Shown here: one piece after another, positions 212-57,390 of the stretch
Position numbering within the stretch: the first letter of the stretch is position 1
Layout: every line of letters starts with the position of its first letter
DNA from: Escherichia phage vB_EcoM_VR26
Strand: one strand, 5' to 3'
Length of the DNA stretch: 64,000 bases
Sequence record: NC_028957.1
Translations under genes and position numbers: made by a program
The notes under the pieces: generated by a model
What the model saw: only the letters and a program-made list of their open reading frames with translations
Databases searched by the model: none
Told to the model about the DNA's origin: nothing

Positions 212-1216
212 TTAACTAATTAATGCAATCCAAACATGTCTTAATGTATCTCTTACATTTGCAATGAGTTGCTTTTTAACTTCAACAGGATTTTCTGCAT
301 CGGTTAATTCTAATTCTTCACGGGACGCCTCTTCCAAAATATCTTGGGCTGTTAGTCCCATTACCTTTCCGAAATCCTTAGGCGTTACTTCACCAATCTT
401 ACTGATAACATTGTTAATACGGTTAACAGTCACATAATCAGTGAATTGCCACAGCAGGTCCATGTCATCTTGGGACAACACAACAGCAGCCTTGATAGGC
501 TTATCAGACTTTTTCTTTTCGCTAAATTTAGAGTTCTTACATTTAATCGCTACGCGCTCACCATTAGGTAACCAGGCAGGAGTATCAGGTTTAAGAACAT
601 ACCCTTCTGCAGTGAATACTTTACCTTCAACCTTTGCGTCAAAATCGGTGGTATTCGCGGTAGTCAAACCCGCATTATCTACTGTAAAATTGTAATCAGG
701 AACCACAGAATCCAGGTCGTTAGGGAGCTTAATCAAGTCTTCAAAGCTACCCGTAGCCAGGCGTGGGGCAACCTTAAATTTATGGATAATACAGAAGGCT
801 TCCATCAATGAATCAGTCAAAACAGATTCAGAGCCATCTTCCTTAGTAACGCGGATATCAAATACATAGAAATCTTTGTCACCATAATCCACATTCTTCT
901 GGATACCGGCCCCGGCAAACTCACCATAAATTTGGTATGATTGATAATTAATATCCTGTAAAAGTCTCTGCACAGTTTTAATGGAATCTGCATAGTTCTT
1001 GAGTACAATTTCGTAGCCATAGAAATCTTCTGCAGGTGGGATAGGTCCAGTGCGTTTCGCACATGTCACATTGTCTTGTTCAATGATTAATGAAAAGTTG
1101 GTGCCATGAATCTTTTCACGCGCTACCCATTCACCGCTGGTGAAGCCTTGCAGGCGAATCTTTTCAATGAACTTGTTGTTATAGTGATTTTCAAGGCTGT
1201 TGTATTTCTTAAACAT
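212..1216 (-). CDS. rnlB: RNA ligase 2 (Rnl2)
   Basis: 334 aa; N-terminus [19 protein letters not shown]… and adenylation motif EKIHGTN (KxHG) match T4 Rnl2 as recalled; same length as T4 Rnl2. Confidence 0.9.
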
Positions 1217-1235
1217 AATCTCTCACTTTTGATGT

Positions 1236-1243
1236 TATAAATA
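1236..1243 (+). promoter_or_regulatory. T4-type late promoter motif TATAAATA, oriented toward the collagen-like/hoc-like module
   Basis: Exact TATAAATA on + strand; next + strand gene starts at 1947; transcript would be antisense to the two minus-strand small genes 1346-1809. Confidence 0.4.
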
Positions 1244-1345
1244 TCATTATAAATTATACCCTCTATACTTTCTTTCTCTGAAAGGAATTAATCGTATCGG
1301 AAGGTCTAGAACCATTATACCACAATTTTATTTGAAGCAAAAAGG

Positions 1346-1609
1346 TCAGAATTTTACATACAGCATTGGTTTGTTATCTTGCCAGTCATAATTCCAGGTA
1401 AATGATGTAAATTTTTCTGCCCGCAGAAAATCAGATATCTTTGTGCGGTTTCCCTCTTCATACTCTTTTTCAGAAACTGCCATATTAACAGCATCTTTGC
1501 CATTCTCAGCAGCGGCAATAGCCACTTTGCGAAATATAACAATAAAGTCATTTGCAACTTTATCTTGTGATTCTTTAGCCATTTGACGTAGTTCTTCTGC
1601 GAATGTCAT
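1346..1609 (-). CDS. hypothetical protein (24.2-like by position)
   Basis: 87-aa ORF, overlaps next gene by 4 nt (translational coupling), position equivalent to T4 24.2. Confidence 0.55.
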   Translation of the reverse strand: MTFAEELRQMAKESQDKVANDFIVIFRKVAIAAAENGKDAVNMAVSEKEYEEGNRTKISDFLRAEKFTSFTWNYDWQDNKPMLYVKF

Positions 1610-1809
1610 TTCTTCACCTTTTTGTTAAACAACCGCTTGCGGTATACGATTTTCTCTCGTGACTTGAACTTTTCTTTAGCTTGTTCAACATCAACCCATG
1701 CCTTTGCCATTTCTTTAGCGGTCCCGCCTAATACCTTGGCGATTTCAATAAATGTCATACCAGTTTCATGCAGGAAATGTACTTTAACCTTATTCATAAC
1801 CATTCTCAT
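1606..1809 (-). CDS. small helix-turn-helix-like protein (24.3-like by position)
   Basis: 67-aa ORF; segment MTFIEIAKVLGGTAKEMAKAW resembles an HTH DNA-binding motif; basic C-terminus. Confidence 0.5.
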   Translation of the reverse strand: MRMVMNKVKVHFLHETGMTFIEIAKVLGGTAKEMAKAWVDVEQAKEKFKSREKIVYRKRLFNKKVKK

Positions 1810-1946
1810 GTTGAGTTAGTGAAGCTATCTTAACATGGAATTTTTAACTTGTAAACAGGAGTTTTATGCCAGATATTCTTGAACGTAAAGATTTACTTTA
1901 CAACCGTCACTACCTTAATAAATATTAAATTAATAACGGAGGATTT

Positions 1947-3473
1947 ATGACACAAACTACAGGTGAAAAAGAAGGCGTATTTTACGGTTATTCTCTTTAT
2001 GATTTGAATAAAGAAAAACTAATAACTTTTGATGAATTACTTACGGGTATTCAAGGAGAGCCCGGAGAAAATGGCGATATTGGACCAAAAGGCCCTATTG
2101 GTTTAACAGGTCCTCAAGGACCGAAAGGTGATATCGGGTCAAAAGGTATTAAAGGTGATACAGGTCCTCAAGGTATTCAAGGGCCCGCTGGCCCACAAGG
2201 TCCTCAGGGAGAAAAGGGAGTCCAAGGTTTAGCTGGAGTCCAAGGCATTCAAGGACCAGTCGGCCACCAAGGAGTGAAAGGTGATACCGGCCCTCAAGGT
2301 ATTCAAGGACCGAAAGGTGATACAGGAGCACAAGGCCCACAAGGTGACAAAGGCGAAATGGGTCCGGTGGGTCCGGCTGGTCTAACATGGAAAGGAACAT
2401 GGGACGCTGATGTAGAGTATTCTATAAATGAGGCTGTCGGATATGGTGGTTCTTTATATTTCGCCAAAACAAAAGTTCCTAATGGCGAAATACCAACACC
2501 GACTTCTAACTATTGGGGTGTTTTGGCTACCGAGGGTCCACAAGGTCCACAAGGTCAACAAGGTCTTAAAGGTGATACCGGTCCTCAAGGTATTCAAGGA
2601 CCTGTAGGGCCTGTAGGGCCGCAGGGTATTCAGGGACCAAGAGGACTTCAAGGGTCAGAAGGTGAAATAGGACCGCGGGGTATTCAAGGGCTAAAAGGCG
2701 AAACTGGGCCCGCTGGTCCACAGGGTATTCAAGGGCTAAAAGGCGAGGTGGGTGCTCAGGGTCCTTCTGGTTCTCCTGGACTTACAGGACCAGAAGGACC
2801 TCGTGGGTTAACAGGCGAAGCTGGAGCTCAAGGACCTCGTGGTGCTATAGGTCCTATCGGTTTAACAGGTCCTATCGGTTTAACGGGTCCTCAAGGTATT
2901 CAAGGTCCGAAAGGTGATACAGGTCCTCAAGGCTTACAAGGTCCTCAAGGCTTACGAGGTATTCAAGGAGCTCCTGGAGTAAAAGGAGAAGCGGGTGCAC
3001 AAGGTCCGAAAGGTGATACAGGAGCACAAGGTCCTATTGGTTTAACTGGACCTAAAGGTGATACAGGCCCGAGCCCTTATACTGTTTATAATTATTCTAA
3101 TGTTGCAACTGGTTATGCTGAAATGGTTATGCCTGGTGTGTCATCAAACACAGTATTTAGACTTCGTTCAGTTGGAACTAATATAGAATATAGTGTTCTA
3201 AGTAAAGGCGGAGCTAATAGATATGTAGATTGGCACTTTTCAATTCCAAGTGTTTCCGGCAATACAGTAAGTACTAATAGCGGAACTAATACATTAACTC
3301 CTACAGGTAATTTTACTATTGTGGCGACCGCTTATAATGGACTAAGGGGATTTACAATAACATTATGCGAGTGGGGTTCAAGAGCTATTGTTGATATCAC
3401 TGTTTATCATCATGGGCGTTCGGGAGACACAACCAAAGCTGTGGCTATTCGTATGACTACTACAAAATACTAA
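1947..3473 (+). CDS. collagen-like triple-helix repeat fibre protein with C-terminal globular domain
   Basis: 508 aa; two long uninterrupted Gly-X-Y runs (~nt 2052-2390 and 2534-3072) separated by a W/Y-rich knot (LTWKGTWDADVEYSINEAVGYGGSLYFAK…NYWGVLATEG); GGAGG Shine-Dalgarno 8 nt upstream; not part of the T4 gene set as recalled. Confidence 0.8.
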   Translation: MTQTTGEKEGVFYGYSLYDLNKEKLITFDELLTGIQGEPGENGDIGPKGPIGLTGPQGPKGDIGSKGIKGDTGPQGIQGPAGPQGPQGEKGVQGLAGVQGIQGPVGHQGVKGDTGPQGIQGPKGDTGAQGPQGDKGEMGPVGPAGLTWKGTWDADVEYSINEAVGYGGSLYFAKTKVPNGEIPTPTSNYWGVLATEGPQGPQGQQGLKGDTGPQGIQGPVGPVGPQGIQGPRGLQGSEGEIGPRGIQGLKGETGPAGPQGIQGLKGEVGAQGPSGSPGLTGPEGPRGLTGEAGAQGPRGAIGPIGLTGPIGLTGPQGIQGPKGDTGPQGLQGPQGLRGIQGAPGVKGEAGAQGPKGDTGAQGPIGLTGPKGDTGPSPYTVYNYSNVATGYAEMVMPGVSSNTVFRLRSVGTNIEYSVLSKGGANRYVDWHFSIPSVSGNTVSTNSGTNTLTPTGNFTIVATAYNGLRGFTITLCEWGSRAIVDITVYHHGRSGDTTKAVAIRMTTTKY

Positions 3474-3482
3474 GGAGCTTTA

Positions 3483-4346
3483 ATGGAACCGGTTAAAGCT
3501 GTGTTAGAGCCTGATGTAATAGATGTGGAATATGGTAATACATACTCGGCTACTGTAACTCTGTCTCCTATAGAAAATATTCCAGATGGTTCCGTGATAA
3601 GATATGATTGGGTTGTTAATAACAAGTTCGTTGGTACGGGTGAAGCTACTCGTACCACCCAACCATCTCAGACCGGAAATTATGTATTATCATGTAGAGT
3701 ATTCATTACTCCGCCTAATGAAAATACTGTAATGGTAACAACTAATAAATCATATGGGTATGTATATAAAAATTCCGATACAAGTCCAGTAGATGCAGAA
3801 ATATTATATGATAACAAGATATACCAAGTAGGAAGCAAAGTTAGATTATTAGCCGTTGCCAATAACCCAGATACCAACTTTGTTAAAGGTATTATATGGA
3901 AGGATGCTGATGGTAAGATAATAGGTATAGGTCGGGAATATATCCATACAATGCAATCAGAGTATGATATAGTTCGAGCTAAAGTTACAATGGATTCGCC
4001 TATAAGAGATGAATTTAGTAAGAACTTTACTATACATTTGTACGCTATAAATGTTCAAGAAGGAACATGTATAAGATATATTCATCCTTTAGACCACAGG
4101 GATGCAGGATTTATCTGGTGTGGTTGGTGGGTTATGGATGAAATCCAACGAGCGATAAAACTTGGGCTGGATTGGAAAAATCCAAAAGAGCTAGATTTAA
4201 ATTACAAGTGTGATTTAGAGACATTAGCGTTATTGCTCAAGACATATCCTGAAGCCGAAGTTCAAGAATCAAGACACGGATATATAATAACCAGACTACA
4301 AATTGAGACTGGCGGAATATATGAAAAACCATATGAAGTAAAATAA
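3483..4346 (+). CDS. Hoc-like capsid decoration protein paralogue (Ig-like domains + Hoc capsid-binding domain)
   Basis: 287 aa; C-terminus YIHPLDHRDAGFIWCGWWVMDEIQ…DW…YPEAEVQESRHGYIITRLQIETGGIY aligns with the C-terminal capsid-binding domain of the canonical Hoc encoded at 4372-5475; AAGGAG SD; start 9 nt after collagen-like stop. Confidence 0.75.
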   Translation: MEPVKAVLEPDVIDVEYGNTYSATVTLSPIENIPDGSVIRYDWVVNNKFVGTGEATRTTQPSQTGNYVLSCRVFITPPNENTVMVTTNKSYGYVYKNSDTSPVDAEILYDNKIYQVGSKVRLLAVANNPDTNFVKGIIWKDADGKIIGIGREYIHTMQSEYDIVRAKVTMDSPIRDEFSKNFTIHLYAINVQEGTCIRYIHPLDHRDAGFIWCGWWVMDEIQRAIKLGLDWKNPKELDLNYKCDLETLALLLKTYPEAEVQESRHGYIITRLQIETGGIYEKPYEVK

Positions 4347-4371: not shown

Positions 4372-5475
4372 TTAATAGACGTAATCGTATATAATACCAG
4401 CTTCCAATGCCGAACGGTGGACGATACGACCGTTACGAGATTCCTGTACATCAACTTCCGGGTAATCACTAAGCATTTTGGCTAATACCGCCAGATGACA
4501 ATAATATGGTGTATCCTCTTTAGTGGCTTTTTTCCAATCTGTACTTTCAGATGTTAATTTCTGAATAGCGTCCATAACCCACCAACCACACCAAATATAC
4601 GCAGTATTACGGACAGGAAGTGGATGTACATAAATTAAAGGACATTCTTCTGGAACAACAGGCTCTGCTTCTGTCACCGTAACAGACTTATTACCTGATT
4701 TAACTGAATTTGTAAAGCCTGTTTGTGATGCAGTAACTTCACAAGTATATGACTTCAAGCCTTCAGTGGATTCCGTTATTGCTCTTGTTGCTTCTGTTGA
4801 GTTGTCGTCCCATTTATATGCAAGAGTAGCGCCAGGAATAGCAGGGGACACAGAAGCTGTCAAATTGAATGGAACATCAACCGTTGCAGTAGACGGGCCT
4901 GAAATCTCAACAGTGAACTCAGGGAATGTATTGTTTTCGACCGTAACAACTACTGCATCAGGATTAATAACTTGGTTGTCATAATCTGCAGCAGAAATGG
5001 TAATTTGACAAGTTAAAGAAACCGGCCCTGCAACAGTAGCAGTACGAGTAATATCTTTAGTAATTTCACCAGTAGACCACAAATATGCTATTGTAGCTCC
5101 ACCAGGTTCACCTGTTACATTAGCCGAAGCGTTATATTCCTCGCCAACTTTAACGGTTGGAGTGGAAGTTGTTAATGTTGCAGTTGCAGACATAGTCTTG
5201 TTATTAACTGTAATAGTTGTTTGAGCCTCTGCCGTTTCAGGCTCTCCTTCTTCCGGCGTTGTGGTGGCAACAACTTTAATTACTTTTGAACCTGCTGGGC
5301 CAGCTGCAATATAATCCATAGTAGCAATAACAGAAGCTTGTGGAACCTCATCAACGGTCCATACAAAAGATTCGGTACCAGCGACAGCGGCTCCAGCCCC
5401 AGTAGCAGTAAAATTAGTTGTTGCACCTATAACCGCTGTAGGTGTTAAAGGGGCAATTGATACAGTATAAGCCAT
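4372..5475 (-). CDS. hoc: highly immunogenic outer capsid protein Hoc
   Basis: 367 aa; Ig-like repeat architecture and C-terminal YVHPLPVRNTAYIWCGWWVMDAIQK…YPEVDVQESRNGRIVHRSALEAGIIY match T4 Hoc as recalled. Confidence 0.9.
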   Translation of the reverse strand: MAYTVSIAPLTPTAVIGATTNFTATGAGAAVAGTESFVWTVDEVPQASVIATMDYIAAGPAGSKVIKVVATTTPEEGEPETAEAQTTITVNNKTMSATATLTTSTPTVKVGEEYNASANVTGEPGGATIAYLWSTGEITKDITRTATVAGPVSLTCQITISAADYDNQVINPDAVVVTVENNTFPEFTVEISGPSTATVDVPFNLTASVSPAIPGATLAYKWDDNSTEATRAITESTEGLKSYTCEVTASQTGFTNSVKSGNKSVTVTEAEPVVPEECPLIYVHPLPVRNTAYIWCGWWVMDAIQKLTSESTDWKKATKEDTPYYCHLAVLAKMLSDYPEVDVQESRNGRIVHRSALEAGIIYDYVY

Positions 5476-52947: not shown

Positions 52948-53748
52948 ATGGCAGTAGTAGGAATTCCTGGTTGGATTGGGACTTCAGCCGTCGCTGAAAC
53001 CGGGCAAAGATGGATGTCAGCCGCTTCGAGGGAACTTCGTTTAGGAAACCCTTCATGGATGTCTCAATTCGCCGGCCGCTCAAGAGAAATTATTCACACA
53101 CTCGGAGCAGACCATAACTTTAACGGGCAGTGGTTTAGAGACCGTTGCTTTGAAGCCGGTGGCGCACCTATTGTGTTTAACATCACAGGTGATTTAGTGT
53201 CTTATAACAGGGACGTTGCGTTATTCTTTATGAATGGAGATACTCCTAACGAATATGTTACTTTGAATATTCATGGTGGAGTTCACATGTGGGGACGCGG
53301 TGGACATGGAGGTTGGACCCACTCCGGCGGCGACGGCAACGGGCAGTGGGGTGGTGATTGTATTGTTAACCATATAGGCACCCGTTTACGTATATGGAAC
53401 TATGGTGTTATCTGTGGTGGTGGTGGCGGCGGTGGCGGTATCGCTTATCGTCCTCACTCCGGCGCTAACTGGCAGGATATTGGTGGCGGTGGTGGAAGAC
53501 CATTTGGCCCAGGCGGAGGTGGTGCTTATTCAGGAGGTGCCGCTTCTTATGGGGGCCCGGGTGGTGGATATAACTACGGTAACGCTCACTCTGGGCAGGG
53601 TGGCGATGCTGGTGCAGCCGGACAAAACGCCTGGTCTGATGGCGGGAAAGTGCTTAAAGTGGGTGTTGGAGGTGGTTCTGGTGCAGCTGTTGCAGTAACA
53701 GCTCCTGCATGGGGAGCAACAGGTACTATCTATGGACCATGGCTATAA
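52948..53748 (+). CDS. 38: tail fibre adhesin gp38, T2-type with glycine-rich motifs
   Basis: 266 aa; conserved N-terminal gp37-attachment region [24 protein letters not shown]…[46 protein letters not shown]; poly-Gly motifs separating variable segments. Confidence 0.88.
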
Positions 53749-53785: not shown

Positions 53786-54439
53786 ATGGAACCAAAAGTA
53801 GGAATCTCAATACCCGACCTACTTTTTGGACTTCTTGATAGAATTTTTAAAGATAATGCGACCGGGAAAGTTGTCTTTTCCCGGGTACTAGTTATTGTTC
53901 TATTATTTTTAATGGCGGTAATCTGGTATAAAGGTGATGCAATTTTAGATGCGTATAGGGATGCTTCATATGCCTCGTACACGGAAATGATAAGGCAAGA
54001 CCAAGATAACAGATTTAAAATTGCAGCTATCGAGCAAATCCAGATAGTCCATTCATCAAGCGGAGCAGACTTTACAGCGATATATTCCTTCAGACCTACC
54101 AACCTTAACTACTTTGTGGATATGGTTGGCTACGAAGGGAGATTGCCTGATACAGTTGACGAGAAAAATTTGGGTGGGTTTCCAATAGATAAGACTTCAG
54201 CGGAATATTTGGCGGGGGTTAATGGTAATTATTTTGAATCCAGTAATGAATTTGTATTCTTACCAACAAAGAAAAAAAGCAGCTTCGCATATATGTTCAG
54301 CTGCCCATTCTTTAATCTAGAGAACGTTTACGCAGGTACAGTTTCTTTGTATTGGTACGTTCAGAAACCAGACCTTGGTTTTGATAGGCTTTCTGCTATG
54401 TGTGGACAAGCAGGTCGTACGCTCGGGCGTACACGTTAG
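53786..54439 (+). CDS. t: holin T
   Basis: 217 aa; …DLLFGLLDRIFKDNATGKVVFSRVLVIVLLFLMAVIWYKGD… single TM near N-terminus and large periplasmic domain; matches T4 T as recalled. Confidence 0.9.
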   Translation: MEPKVGISIPDLLFGLLDRIFKDNATGKVVFSRVLVIVLLFLMAVIWYKGDAILDAYRDASYASYTEMIRQDQDNRFKIAAIEQIQIVHSSSGADFTAIYSFRPTNLNYFVDMVGYEGRLPDTVDEKNLGGFPIDKTSAEYLAGVNGNYFESSNEFVFLPTKKKSSFAYMFSCPFFNLENVYAGTVSLYWYVQKPDLGFDRLSAMCGQAGRTLGRTR

Positions 54440-54711
54440 AATCCGGAGGTATACATCATAAGATATCGGTGTATATCTTCGAATCCTTCGTTAAATTGTT
54501 CAATGATTTGTTCAATTTCATCTTCAGATAAACTTTTAAACAACTTGTTAAACGATACATTGTTTAACTCATTCCCATTCTCATTCCTCAATCCCAACTC
54601 ATTCAAAAACGCGATAAACACATCACGCTTCATCGTAATATCTTCCCGGTCGGTTTTAATCAAAATTGAAGTAACGGTAACAATTTCAGAAACGATTTCA
54701 AATTTAGTCAT
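54436..54711 (-). CDS. asiA: anti-sigma-70 factor AsiA
   Basis: 91 aa; …EIVTVTSILIKTDREDI…FIAFLNELGL…FNEGFEDIHRYLMMYT matches T4 AsiA as recalled. Confidence 0.8.
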   Translation of the reverse strand: MTKFEIVSEIVTVTSILIKTDREDITMKRDVFIAFLNELGLRNENGNELNNVSFNKLFKSLSEDEIEQIIEQFNEGFEDIHRYLMMYTSGF

Positions 54712-55023
54712 TTTATTTTACTCAAGTATTCAATAAGACATTCAATTATTCAGTAAGGATATTGTACTATTATTCCTCTGGGTTGTACACATGATTTTCC
54801 ATCTGTACAACATATGTCTGATACATATCTTCAATTGGTTCCTGGAACTTAAAATCAGCTCCAAGGAATTCCTCAAAGCAAGCCTGCTCGTGCGTACGCT
54901 GACCAGTGATGGTGTTCTCTAAGTTATGACTCATAGCCTTTACCCTTATGTTTCTGTTTGCGATTGGATTCTTTAAAGTTTTTCTTCTTGTCCTTATGGA
55001 CAGACGCCTTATTGAAATCGTGC

Positions 55024-55305
55024 TTAGCTACCAGATTGTTCATCATGCAATTTCCTTAATTGATATTCTAAAGAGCTAATAATTTCTTTATTAGTTGCTA
55101 TATACATATCACGCAGGAATGGCTTCAGGCCTTCTCTAACTCTATATGTGTTATCACTAATATCCTTTATATATTCATGCTCTAAAGCATCCCATGCCGG
55201 TTGGTTAACATAAGTTCCCCAGTTTTCTTCCATCATAGTATTCAAACGTTTGATATGATTAATATGGACTTCGATTGCATCAATCTGGAGTTGTTTAAGG
55301 TTCAT
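55024..55305 (-). CDS. hypothetical protein (arn-region)
   Basis: 93-aa ORF between asiA and motA; size close to T4 Arn (~92 aa as recalled) but identity unverified. Confidence 0.45.
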   Translation of the reverse strand: MNLKQLQIDAIEVHINHIKRLNTMMEENWGTYVNQPAWDALEHEYIKDISDNTYRVREGLKPFLRDMYIATNKEIISSLEYQLRKLHDEQSGS

Positions 55306-55772
55306 TAGTAAAGGTCCTCTGAATAAAGTTCTTTCTCACTACCGCCGCGTTCAATACGCACCTGATTTGCATAAGTCGCAATAATCATTGCTTCTTCACG
55401 AGTCCAGTAATTGCTGTACTGGTCAATGAATCCTTGATTATCACCACAAACATGGTCTGACACAAGTTTATCACTTACCTGGTCAAGCACTTCTGCCATA
55501 TCTTTTGAATAATGTCTGGCTCCAGGAATAACCAGAGTCCCACCATCTTTTAGCTTAAAGCGGTTAGCTGCACATACAATCCTGCGCTGATATTTTTCAT
55601 TATTGTTCCAATGAGCAATCTGCCAACAGATTTCCGGGACTTCATTCAAAACATCTTGTTCGGAATATTCGGTGTAGTCACCATAGGCCTGTAATTTAGC
55701 AGCAAGACTCTCTGGAGTCTCACGCGATAAAGCCAGGTCTAATAGTTCAAGGCGTTCTTTGAAGGTTTTCAT
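55305..55772 (-). CDS. hypothetical protein (arn-region)
   Basis: 155-aa ORF with conserved-looking core RIVCAANRF…[12 protein letters not shown]…[21 protein letters not shown]; function unknown. Confidence 0.55.
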
Positions 55773-56116
55773 TTGATAATCACCTTATAACCATTATATT
55801 TCACGAATTCATGAATTTTATCACCAATACCAATCAGCTCGCCTTTGTCAGAAGAAGCTAATTTGATATCAACTGTTTGACATACACCAAACGAAGTTAT
55901 GGATACTTTTTCTATAGTAATAATCTCAAGAAAACGTGATAACTGCATACCAAACTCAAGAGGAACATTATCAATCTGGAGATGAAGGTTATAAATTACC
56001 TTAATACCATTCACCAGGGCACAGCGCTCATCCCAAGCATTACGTTGTTCTTCAATCAATTTAAGGGAATGGCCTTCGCCATCCCAATTTAGTTCCATAG
56101 GAATCATTTGAACCAA
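55769..56116 (-). CDS. hypothetical protein (arn-region)
   Basis: 115-aa ORF. Confidence 0.45.
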
Positions 56117-56436
56117 CCTTTAACACGTTGCCACAGACTTTTCTGTTGAGCTTTATTAACACCAATTGAGCGAATAACTGGTTGTGATTCCTGATATTCT
56201 TTGTAGTCAGCTTTATAGACTTCATATGCCGCTGGAACAAAGGCACCAATTGCCGCCATGAAGTTCTTGCGAACACCAAACGGAGCTGCTGCATCATCTT
56301 GGCGATGGATAAGATATTGACCAGCTTTGACCTTGACAATAGTTCCAAGGTAAGCGCCATGATACCAAACATCCCAACCCTCTTGAGTAGGTTCTACACA
56401 AGCACGCAGTTCATTAACAATATTCAGCTTATTCAT
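56104..56436 (-). CDS. hypothetical protein (motA.1-like by position)
   Basis: 110-aa ORF. Confidence 0.45.
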   Translation of the reverse strand: MNKLNIVNELRACVEPTQEGWDVWYHGAYLGTIVKVKAGQYLIHRQDDAAAPFGVRKNFMAAIGAFVPAAYEVYKADYKEYQESQPVIRSIGVNKAQQKSLWQRVKGWFK

Positions 56437-56443
56437 AATTTCC

Positions 56444-57052
56444 TCACTTTAAGATGTTAATAACATGTTGAATGTTTTCAGTTGACATATGATTGTCAAT
56501 GTAGGTATTCAATCCACCTACTTTAACGCTAAATCCCACGTCTGTAAACTGTTTTACTATCTTTTGTTCAGTATTATACGCATGCACGCGAATCTGACCA
56601 TCACGTCGCACATCAATCTGTTTTAATGTCTTGACACGCTTGAACTTCACAATCAAATTACTGCGGTCTTCTGAAATGCTCTTAAAGTCAATACCAATGG
56701 ACAACAATTGCTCTTTGATATATTCTGCAGTCGCTTCCATTTCATCAGTCACACCGCGTTTTGTTCTTGTCTTCTTTACTTCCAGAAGGTCAGGATTATT
56801 TTCATTTGCCCAAAGTTCAGCTGCATCCAGAATAAGGTCAACACCCTTTTCTGTAATCATCAAACCATCACCAGAAGCTTCAACATAGTTGTTATTCAAC
56901 AATGTCTGTACGCTATCAATTGATGTGTTCTGCTGGTCTAAAACAACCTCAGGACGAACAAAGTTGTTTTTGTATACAAACACCAGAGCATTAACATCAG
57001 TCTCGTGTAGAGCGTTCTGGGAGCATTTAACGATATAATTTAACTTGTTCAT
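56444..57052 (-). CDS. motA: MotA-like middle transcription activator
   Basis: 202 aa (T4 MotA ~211 as recalled); shared segment …ASGDGLMITEKG… and position between asiA-region and gene 52. Confidence 0.7.
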   Translation of the reverse strand: MNKLNYIVKCSQNALHETDVNALVFVYKNNFVRPEVVLDQQNTSIDSVQTLLNNNYVEASGDGLMITEKGVDLILDAAELWANENNPDLLEVKKTRTKRGVTDEMEATAEYIKEQLLSIGIDFKSISEDRSNLIVKFKRVKTLKQIDVRRDGQIRVHAYNTEQKIVKQFTDVGFSVKVGGLNTYIDNHMSTENIQHVINILK

Positions 57053-57054
57053 AA

Positions 57055-57282
57055 TTATCCCTTAATAGATTTCATGTAATTGGATGCATATGATTGTACC
57101 ACAGTACGCTTCATATGGGAAGTAGAAACAATAACATCAATCGCTTGTTTACGTTCTTCTTTAGAATTTGCCAGTTTGAACATGTCAAAGTAGTAATAGC
57201 AAGCTTCTTTGTTAGATTTGAATTTAGCGTTGATGTATTCTTGACCTTCATTCTGTTGTGCAGTAAACATTTTATTCTCCAA
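57055..57282 (-). CDS. hypothetical protein (52.1-like by position)
   Basis: 75-aa ORF. Confidence 0.45.
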   Translation of the reverse strand: MENKMFTAQQNEGQEYINAKFKSNKEACYYYFDMFKLANSKEERKQAIDVIVSTSHMKRTVVQSYASNYMKSIKG

Positions 57283-57362: not shown

Positions 57363-57384
57363 AAAAAAGGACCCCGAAGGGTCC
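57363..57384 (-). terminator. rho-independent terminator downstream of gene 52 (ggaccc-cgaa-gggtcc; U run on minus)
   Basis: 6-bp stem, 4-nt loop, preceded on + strand by AAAAAA. Confidence 0.6.
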
Positions 57385-57390
57385 TAGTTT

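Follow-up and report, generated by a model that had tools for sequence, protein, structure and literature searches.

The window analysed here, a stretch of 64,000 nucleotides from Escherichia phage vB_EcoM_VR26 (NC_028957.1), carries an arn block of the Gaprivervirus type, resembling those of SP18, VR7 and TH15. Positions 54770-56436 are filled by six minus-strand ORFs located between asiA and motA (Table 1). In order from arn.4 to sORF-A, neighboring genes are joined by two 4-nt overlaps (ATGA), a 1-nt overlap (TAATG), and overlaps of 23 and 11 nt. A Shine-Dalgarno-like motif is observed 5' of most starts in the island.

Table 1. Features of the arn block and its boundaries in the window.
Feature	Position	Strand	Description
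motA, upstream boundary	56444..57052	-	PF09114 and PF09158; phrog_1345, E 3e-72
arn.4 orthologue	56104..56436	-	110 aa; begins 7 nt past the motA stop; strong SD (GAGGA)
ORFan	55769..56107	-	112 aa counted from ATG; cassette at the arn.4/arn.3 junction
arn.3 orthologue	55305..55772	-	155 aa; two modules and a low-confidence linker
Arn.3 residues 1-33, CmdA-antitoxin-like two-helix module	55674..55772	-	
Arn.3 residues ~58-155, core domain phrog_839/PF26092	55308..55601	-	
arn.2 orthologue	55024..55305	-	93 aa; predicted alpha-helical hairpin
sORF-B	54924..55046	-	40 aa; lysine-rich peptide (DUF7230)
sORF-A	54770..54934	-	54 aa; acidic; T4 AsiA.1 homologue by position and N-terminus
asiA, downstream boundary	54436..54711	-	PF09010, E 8e-21; phrog_1166, E 3e-37
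Terminator-like hairpin past gene 52	57368..57385	-	consensus scan only

All six ORFs match PHROG families (E 1e-23 to 1e-72), and dN/dS values calculated against SP18, UPEC01 and VR7 reveal clear purifying selection in five of them (0.03-0.24): 0.04-0.10 for arn.4, 0.07-0.09 for the ORFan, 0.06-0.09 for arn.3, 0.10-0.24 for arn.2, and 0.03-0.18 for sORF-B. The six ORFs are real, translationally coupled genes, and the tightly packed, mostly overlapping minus-strand arrangement described in an earlier sequence-only reading is borne out by the coordinates, the dN/dS values and the PHROG matches. It is extremely improbable that chance non-coding frames account for some of them, chiefly the two sORFs and the ORFan. 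These frames are short, and the constraint on sORF-A is weaker (dN/dS 0.39-0.84, with few substitutions underlying the value). Against this, sORF-B is found in 1,209 phage records and has its own Pfam family (PF23876, E 2.6e-13; phrog_1359, E 8e-23), the ORFan is under the constraint given above, and both Shine-Dalgarno motifs and start/stop coupling are present. The earlier reading had taken the two sORFs to be unannotated; both exist, 10-20 nt away from where it placed them, and both are CDSs in SP18, VR7 and UPEC01.

The operon of T4 and T2 (arn.4-arn.3-arn.2-arn.1-arn, followed by asiA.1 and asiA) occupies the same position between motA and asiA, and the shared genes lie on the same strand and in the same order here. 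Orthologues of arn.4, arn.3, arn.2, the DUF7230 peptide and AsiA.1 are common to both. Arn.3 is 73% identical to its T4 counterpart, Arn.4 is 76% identical over its full length to T4 DNA, and Arn.2 is more divergent (38% identity, E 9e-23). The assignment of the island to the arn region thus holds for its placement and for these three orthologues, but not for arn and arn.1, for which tblastn finds no homologue in the 64-kb window (E>0.2), while the 112-aa ORFan is additional here. Among the genes of the T4 cluster, only arn has a proven anti-defence role, its product being a DNA mimic that inhibits McrBC; the best match to Arn anywhere in the window has an E of 3.4, and arn is not annotated in SP18, VR7 or UPEC01. 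As arn is missing, the analogy with T4 brings no proven anti-defence gene to this locus.

Promoter-like sites at 57348-57309 follow the terminator-like hairpin, suggesting that a unit comprising a motA.1-like gene, motA and the island probably begins there. Transcription of the island therefore probably starts in the promoter region that precedes motA. A further promoter-like site lies near asiA (54789-54761); like the others, it comes from a consensus scan only. A search for a MotA-box middle promoter upstream of arn.4 found none. The window also lacks the 70-nt intergenic region of the T4/T2 operon and the pairing site for ArcZ in T4/T2 arn.2, CCAGGGAAAT. Regulation by ArcZ as in T2 was rejected for the absence of this site, and the best duplex with the ArcZ seed (-18.6 kcal/mol) is no better than that of shuffled sequences (mean -18.7).

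Arn.4 belongs to phrog_1594 (E 7e-53), is annotated as arn.4 in SP18 and VR7, and is matched over its full length by tblastn in 1002 phage records, T4 included, with no match in Pfam, NCBIfam, PADLOC or PDB. The ORFan is represented by only 6 clusters among 5.8 billion proteins and occurs in 48 phage records, all from Gaprivervirus or Dhakavirus. It is joined at both ends by ATGA overlaps, to arn.4 and to arn.3, and is flanked by an 8-nt repeat, TCAAATGA; VR7 has the corresponding empty site. The ORFan is a lineage-restricted cassette inserted at the arn.4/arn.3 junction. Its first ~18 residues are the same as the leader with which Arn.3 begins in other phages, and beyond its PHROG no family or PDB match was found. 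The AF2 model of Arn.2 is a helical hairpin, unlike the beta-alpha-beta-beta-beta-alpha fold of a RaiA/HPF-like ribosome hibernation factor. This candidate, raised by a weak phmmer match (E ~0.5) that did not improve with a profile, was discarded.

A 39-aa homologue of sORF-B lies unannotated in T4 between arn.1 and arn. ArfA-like peptides (Pfam PF03889) served as a comparison for sORF-B, and an ArfA-like role in ribosome rescue was rejected: DUF7230 is its only Pfam match at E<=1 and no PDB chain matches at E<=10. sORF-A matches phrog_5245 (E 1.6e-34), is present in 81 phage records, and shares 12 of 28 residues with T4 AsiA.1 in BLASTP (E 7e-6). At E<=1, Pfam yields none of the labels given in the EAWsc9 record (YqfC, YozE-SAM-like, thioredoxin). 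Homology and fold searches return no function for Arn.2, Arn.4, the ORFan or the two peptides, and only the N-terminus of Arn.3 leads further, to CmdA. The earlier statement that none of the ORFs could be matched from sequence is correct for function and incorrect for family.

Arn.3 (phrog_839, E 6e-72; PF26092 precomputed on all homologues) is, according to its AF2 model (pLDDT 86.9), a protein of two modules. An N-terminal pair of helices (residues 4-16 and 20-29) is connected by a linker with a pLDDT of ~60 to a C-terminal core of ~95 residues with values above 95. The core is predicted to adopt a beta-beta-beta-alpha-beta-alpha arrangement with SEDLY at its end. Residues R86, H87, Q113, G114, F115, R125 and Q137 are invariant, and together with the C-terminal SEDLY they confirm the conserved core that the sequence-only reading had noticed in the 155-aa protein. 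The core family is very widespread in phages, with 2,591 clusters, and has polar and aromatic residues (R, H, Q, R, Q, E, Y) that do not vary from Pseudomonas to Escherichia hosts. No solved structural relative of the core was found; Foldseek against BFVD gives three weak matches (E 1e-3 to 1e-2, TM ~0.35), all to proteins of the 'large polyvalent protein-associated domain' kind. In proteins of 214-434 aa, the regions fused N-terminally to the core contain no Pfam domain. A Pfam survey of 86 neighbors of the core gene shows mostly replication and nin-region genes. A general tie to phosphoesterases or RNA repair, which phiKZ gp246 (HD_4) and phi92 gp097/096 had suggested, was rejected in view of this survey and because 44 non-redundant locus groups have no common neighbor.

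The N-terminal module resembles the antitoxin CmdA of CmdTAC, a toxin–antitoxin–chaperone system of P2 prophages that aborts T-even infection (Vassallo 2022, 2024). In this system, titration of the SecB-like chaperone by the phage capsid protein leads ClpXP to degrade CmdA, which frees CmdT, an mRNA ADP-ribosyltransferase. CmdT and CmdA together are toxic when CmdC is missing (PMC11618068). CmdTAC is specific to Tevenvirinae, the group that bears Arn.3. The PADLOC model PD-T4-9_B matches Arn.3 of the window with an E of 1.4e-6, over positions 1-33 of 77 only, and 13 of 38 members of the Arn.3 family match as well (best 2e-12; SP18 1.5e-9). The CmdA reference was recovered through a published primer sequence from a cmdT-cmdA-secB operon, whose genes match PD-T4-9_A, B and C with E values of 4e-97, 3e-38 and 7e-61. 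In hhalign, the 13 Arn.3 N-termini align with CmdA with a probability of 97.7% (E 1.4e-12; 44% identity over 32 columns), and tblastn of CmdA against the window gives a single match, residues 1-33 of Arn.3 (E 5e-5). These comparisons, made along independent routes, are robust support for homology between the two-helix module of Arn.3 and the N-terminus of CmdA ahead of its chaperone-addiction tail, spanning only ~33 residues. Arn.3 has neither an unstructured chaperone-addiction tail nor an Ala-Ala (LAA) ClpXP degron, and ends instead in the folded domain with SEDLY. [quoted passage not shown]

Arn.3 alleles were compared with published CmdTAC efficiencies of plating (EOPs) for 12 T-even phages that are related to one another, a kinship for which the statistics are not corrected. 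The CmdA-like MKTF allele is present in both insensitive phages (Bas35 and Bas38) and in one of ten sensitive ones (Fisher one-sided p=0.045 on this uncorrected set); the other nine (T2, T4, T6, Bas39-42, 44 and 45) carry a degenerate MNPF allele (PADLOC E 2.6e-3). Arn.3 of the window and Arn.3 of Bas35, a fully insensitive phage (EOP 0.85), share 94% identity. The association is suggestive, with allele and phenotype agreeing in 11 of 12 phages. The exception is Bas36: its N-terminus resembles CmdA most closely (17/32 identical; PADLOC 5.6e-8), but CmdTAC of ECOR22 still lowers its plating ~10^5-fold, indicating that the module is not sufficient against this system. T4 escape mutants from CmdTAC mapped to alt.-3, not arn.3, and differences in the capsid or in Alt.-3 could be the cause of the insensitivity of Bas35 and Bas38.

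Within this arn.4-to-asiA.1 block, we tentatively regard Arn.3 as the likeliest counter-defence gene, possibly an orphan antitoxin of the CmdA type. Arn.3 would dock on CmdT-type toxins and neutralize them as a degradation-resistant antitoxin, and its conserved core would stabilize the protein or add a further activity. T4-like phages have a counter-defence of this orphan-antitoxin type in Dmd, directed against RnlA and LsoA. The anti-defence role suggested earlier for the whole island thus gains support from sequence in the case of arn.3, through CmdA, while for the other five genes it follows from location only.

It is also quite possible that the N-terminal helices are a portable interaction or dimerization unit exchanged between phages and prophages, with the core of Arn.3 acting on a process unrelated to CmdTAC, such as phage or host nucleotide, RNA or DNA metabolism. 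The module occurs inside an unrelated 320-aa protein (gp063) of Klebsiella phage Geezett and may therefore serve interactions in general; it is missing from most core-family clusters, and Bas36 is sensitive although carrying it. The core gene lies near topoisomerase II in phages of the T4 and Vi01 types, and in the nin/replication regions of lambdoid phages, which also agrees with such a role. However, the module resembles an antitoxin whose system acts specifically on the T-even group, the allele fits the phenotype in all but one of the phages compared, and no other partner was identified. A more ambitious form of the counter-defence reading, in which degron-free CmdA-type docking helices bring a core of new fold to CmdT-type toxins and the standalone family is an unrecognized anti-toxin module, is speculative, and we consider it quite unlikely.

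We think it rather unlikely that the island is ordinary cargo of a hyperplastic region, namely host-takeover or fitness genes, suited to certain hosts and conditions, that come and go as cassettes and have no anti-defence role. Its content does vary among close relatives (VR7 has arn.1 and lacks the ORFan, the reverse of the situation here, and the UPEC01 block carries an additional 58-aa ORF), the cassette boundaries at the 8-nt repeat are clean, and five of the six genes have no defence-related match. On the other hand, Arn.2, Arn.3, Arn.4 and the DUF7230 peptide are present in about 940-1,550 phage records and are under strong purifying selection, the same operon of T4 and T2 encodes the McrBC inhibitor, and Arn.3 is related to CmdA. 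A core that binds or hydrolyzes nucleotide immune signals (a sponge or nuclease for CBASS, Thoeris or Pycsar) or ADP-ribosylated nucleic acid seems very unlikely. Consistent with such an activity, the core stands alone as a small domain whose polar and aromatic residues named above are invariant across hosts, adjoins an HD_4 phosphohydrolase in phiKZ (gp246) and a metallophosphoesterase/RNA-ligase cassette in phi92 (gp097/096), and gives the weak Foldseek matches described above.

The arn.1-4 genes have had no known function since the annotation of T4, and this was still the case in the literature as of June 2026; the homology between Arn.3 and CmdA is a new link to a T-even-specific defence. 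It makes Arn.3 a directly testable counter-defence candidate and suggests how the so far unexplained insensitivity of two BASEL phages to CmdTAC might arise. It also draws attention to phrog_839/PF26092, a phage domain family that is very large, shows enzyme-like conservation and lacks a solved structure. Were the bipartite anti-toxin model true, it would explain why Bas35 and Bas38 ignore CmdTAC, and the core family of ~2,600 clusters, from virulent and temperate phages, would act against ADP-ribosylating or nucleotide-based abortive-infection toxins. If the counter-defence hypothesis fails, the island is conserved T-even accessory cargo without arn.

Standalone phrog_839/PF26092 proteins (Vi01_015, phiKZ gp245, phi92 gp098 and lambdoid nin-region ORFs) have the same core and invariant motifs as Arn.3, without its CmdA-like module. 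In CmdA of CmdTAC (PD-T4-9), the ~32 N-terminal residues are homologous and a helix pair is predicted as in Arn.3; in contrast, the module of Arn.3 is joined to a folded phage domain of 95 aa, and arn.3 has no adjacent CmdT or SecB-like gene. A precedent for the proposed role is AdfN (gp30.3) of T4-like phages, an orphan antitoxin against DarTG1, whose toxin is also an ADP-ribosyltransferase (PMC11257639). The homology of AdfN, an enzyme, extends over the entire NADAR domain of DarG1, whereas Arn.3 shares only a short binding-type module; in both cases, a standalone phage relative or mimic of a bacterial antitoxin would counter an abortive-infection toxin.

From 54770 to 56436, the interval between motA and asiA is filled by six minus-strand ORFs with start/stop coupling. 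A Shine–Dalgarno-like motif lies upstream of most of their start codons, and all six have PHROG matches (E 1e-23 to 1e-72), in every case to a family of unknown function. Together with the dN/dS values, these features confirm the tightly packed ORFs described in the sequence-only reading: all six are genes and no chance frames. That reading took the two smallest, sORF-A and sORF-B, for unannotated and placed them 10–20 nt off; SP18, VR7 and UPEC01 all have both annotated as CDSs.

Features of the island, its flanks and the loci compared. Coordinates are those of the window unless another phage is named, when they count within the locus compared; the junction is with the gene in the next row; dN/dS was computed against three related phages; records were counted among 50,697 phage records.
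Feature	Coordinates	Strand	Junction	dN/dS	Records	Remarks
Terminator-like hairpin	57385-57368	-				after gene 52
motA.1-like gene	57055-57282	-		near 0		71-75 aa, phrog_17275
motA	56444-57052	-				PF09114/PF09158
arn.4	56104-56436	-	ATGA	0.04-0.10	1,002	110 aa
ORFan	55769-56107	-	ATGA	0.07-0.09	48	112 aa; junctions at about 56100-56110 and 55765-55775
arn.3	55305-55772	-	TAATG	0.06-0.09	at least 1,553 (core)	155 aa
arn.2		-	23-nt overlap	0.10-0.24	942	
sORF-B	54924-55046	-	11-nt overlap	0.03-0.18	1,209	40 aa
sORF-A	54770-54934	-		0.39-0.84 (few changes)	81	54 aa
asiA	54436-54711	-				PF09010, E 8e-21
gp38 gene	52948-53748	+				266 aa
T4 39-aa ORF	NC_000866 2581-2700	-				overlaps arn.1 end and arn start
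T4 arn.2-arn.1 interval	T4 2807-2876					70 nt
T4 arn.4	T4 3628-3967					annotated 68 aa (NC_000866)
Bas35 arn.3	Bas35 4377-4844					
Geezett protein	Geezett 1698-2660					320 aa
EAWsc9 labelled genes	EAWsc9 971-3612					

The 2.7 kb around the island share 96% identity with Escherichia phage TH15 and 91–94% with SP18, UPEC01, VR7 and VR20, all Gaprivervirus (Straboviridae, Tevenvirinae). The flanking genes can be identified without ambiguity: asiA and motA, holin t and a glycine-rich gp38 on the opposite strand, and topoisomerase gene 52 farther upstream. Promoter-like sites follow the hairpin, and these consensus scans suggest a single transcription unit spanning motA, the motA.1-like gene upstream of it and the island; a second promoter-like site, from the consensus scan only, precedes asiA. 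The motA.1-like gene occupies the same slot as T4 motA.1, which encodes a 49-aa predicted membrane peptide, but is unrelated to it. The gp38 before the holin is a T2/T6-type adhesin, not a T4-type chaperone; since its counterparts at the equivalent position in SP18 and VR7 have only 181 aa, the receptor-binding module is unlike that of the closest annotated relatives.

The record counts identify four of the six genes as near-core accessory genes of enterobacterial T-even phages; across the same records, sORF-A and the ORFan are confined to Gaprivervirus and Dhakavirus. The ORFan has the form of a clean cassette: both of its junctions read TCAAATGA, an 8-nt direct repeat formed by the stop/start overlap, and the empty site in VR7 carries a single TCAAATGA copy. 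The ORFan's N-terminal ~18 residues are identical to the leader with which Arn.3 begins in other phages. Gene gain and loss at this site seems to occur via recombination at the conserved stop/start junction.

Sequence searches of Pfam, NCBIfam, PADLOC and the PDB gave no significant match for Arn.4, the ORFan, Arn.2 or sORF-A, and DUF7230 as the sole match for sORF-B. A RaiA-like identity for Arn.2 was rejected: the match is weak (E ~0.5) and restricted by the profile to one helix, and AF2 predicts a helical hairpin (pLDDT 83) whose structural neighbours are all generic coiled coils. A preprint of 2026 reports for T2 that ArcZ, a host sRNA, makes the arn transcript more stable via the 3′ end of arn.2; it gives the functions of arn.1–4 as unknown. 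The ArcZ site of T2 arn.2 is absent here, and none of the ArcZ duplexes examined was above chance. In the EAWsc9 record, the name 'YozE-SAM-like' is given to the sORF-A homologue, 'sporulation protein YqfC' to the ORFan and 'thioredoxin' to the motA.1-like gene; in many records, arn.2, arn.3 and arn.4 go by 'anti-restriction nuclease'. All of these names lack Pfam support at E ≤ 1 and seem to have been propagated between records or guessed from structure.

Residues 1–33 of Arn.3 match positions 1–33 of PD-T4-9_B, the PADLOC model of CmdA (E 1.4e-6), as do 13 of the 38 Arn.3 family members (best E 2e-12). CmdA is the antitoxin of the defence system CmdTAC, for which PD-T4-9 is another name, alongside the mRNA ADP-ribosyltransferase CmdT and the SecB-like chaperone CmdC; when T4 infects, CmdC is lost to competition from the capsid protein, ClpP degrades the antitoxin, and CmdT then shuts translation down. 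As a guard against a PADLOC-model artefact, we recovered a real cmdTAC operon via a published primer from a P2-like prophage of E. coli N2250, whose genes match PD-T4-9_A, B and C with E 4e-97, 3e-38 and 7e-61, respectively. Alignment of the 13 Arn.3 N-termini with N2250 CmdA (N-terminal sequence MLSFEQRMALLNKALQQYNPESLYEKLSSYPA) by hhalign gave a probability of 97.7%, E 1.4e-12 and 44% identity over 32 columns. The same Arn.3 site is the sole tblastn match of CmdA in the whole window (E 5e-5), where no counterparts of CmdT or CmdC were found. BLASTP of whole Arn.3 against whole CmdA, with default composition adjustment, returned no alignment. The AF2 model of Arn.3 shows helices at 4–16 and 20–29, a low-confidence linker and then the core. 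Homology and model together thus describe Arn.3 as a CmdA-like helix pair fused to a phrog_839 core, lacking the chaperone-addiction tail and degron of CmdA.

The core corresponds to PF26092, which is precomputed on Arn.3 homologues and missing from the local Pfam copy used for the window searches. A profile search of 1.84 billion representatives recovered 2,591 core clusters at E ≤ 1e-3, mostly standalone proteins of 90–110 aa equivalent to Arn.3 residues ~58–155; a few are C-terminal fusions to regions without a Pfam domain. Across this diversity, R-H, Q-G-F, R, Q and a C-terminal L-x-S-E-x-L-Y are invariant, the kind of pattern usually seen in enzymes or ligand binders. The core is present in Vi01 (adjoining topoisomerase II, as in T4-like phages), phiKZ gp245, phi92 gp098 and lambdoid nin regions. 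Among 80 viral loci (44 non-redundant groups) surveyed for neighbouring genes, the core had no conserved partner. Foldseek against BFVD weakly matched proteins labelled 'large polyvalent protein-associated domain'.

CmdTAC is reported to cut plating of T2, T4, T6 and 10 of 12 BASEL Tevenvirinae by 10^2 to 10^6, without effect on Bas35 (EOP 0.85) and Bas38 (0.32). We compared arn.3 from 12 phages with published CmdTAC data (the T2 record is labelled an escape mutant). The CmdA-like allele, MKTF(K/E)ERL... (PADLOC E 3e-6 to 6e-8), occurs in the insensitive Bas35 and Bas38 and in the sensitive Bas36; a degenerate allele, MNPF(I/V)NRLKMLNVPL... (E 2.6e-3, measured for T4), occurs in T2, T4, T6 and Bas39, 40, 41, 42, 44 and 45, all sensitive. 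The association (two of two insensitive versus one of ten sensitive phages; Fisher one-sided p = 0.045, the phages being mutually related) is suggestive only; differences in gp23 or alt.-3 may instead account for the insensitivity of Bas35 and Bas38. As Bas36 shows, the CmdA-like module is insufficient against ECOR22 CmdTAC. Arn.3 of Bas35, a Tequatrovirus (WilhelmHis), is 94% identical to that of the Gaprivervirus window and only ~74% identical to other Tequatrovirus alleles, so arn.3 alleles move between genera. Bas35 has an additional 51-aa ORF between arn.4 and arn.3.

In the best-supported mechanistic reading, still a tentative one drawn from sequence comparison, Arn.3 would be antitoxin-like, an orphan factor directed at toxins of the CmdT type; T4-like phages offer a precedent in AdfN, an orphan antitoxin resembling DarG1. 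Nearly as plausible is a reading in which the helix pair would be an interaction module that is portable and shares no function with CmdA, as favoured by the presence of the same module in an unrelated protein encoded by Klebsiella phage Geezett. This acidic, proline-rich protein carries the module internally, at residues ~105–132 (PD-T4-9_B, E 2.7e-9). The literature searched holds no report of an Arn.3–CmdA link or of a phage CmdTAC inhibitor.

The T4 order is motA, arn.4, arn.3, arn.2, arn.1, arn, asiA.1, asiA; in the window it is motA, arn.4, ORFan, arn.3, arn.2, sORF-B, sORF-A, asiA. The island is therefore the arn region, as first proposed, but arn itself is absent: searches through the whole 64-kb window found no homologue of Arn or Arn.1, so the window lacks the one gene in the T4 cluster whose anti-defence role is proven. 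The proposed anti-defence function is a matter of location alone for five of the six genes, while Arn.3 now has specific, testable sequence evidence for counter-defence. sORF-A is the AsiA.1 counterpart (N-terminus 12/28 identical to T4 AsiA.1, E 7e-6). The T4 homologue of sORF-B is a lysine-rich 39-aa ORF, MNNLVAKHNFNKASVHKDKKKAFKESNRKQKHKGKVYDY, unannotated in RefSeq, whose DUF7230 homologues are widely kept under purifying selection. Over its full length, the window Arn.4 aligns end to end with T4 DNA at 76% identity, and BASEL T4-like phages have arn.4 annotated as ~109 aa; the RefSeq start of T4 arn.4 is probably too far downstream. The T4 arn.2–arn.1 interval, treated as a non-coding 'intergenic region' of T4/T2 in the ArcZ/RNase E preprint, translates in the arn.1 frame to NSKSDYFNSLNDKDKNLIRHFIVE, which matches the N-terminal half of VR7 Arn.1 (65 aa) and looks like a decayed or mis-started piece of arn.1.
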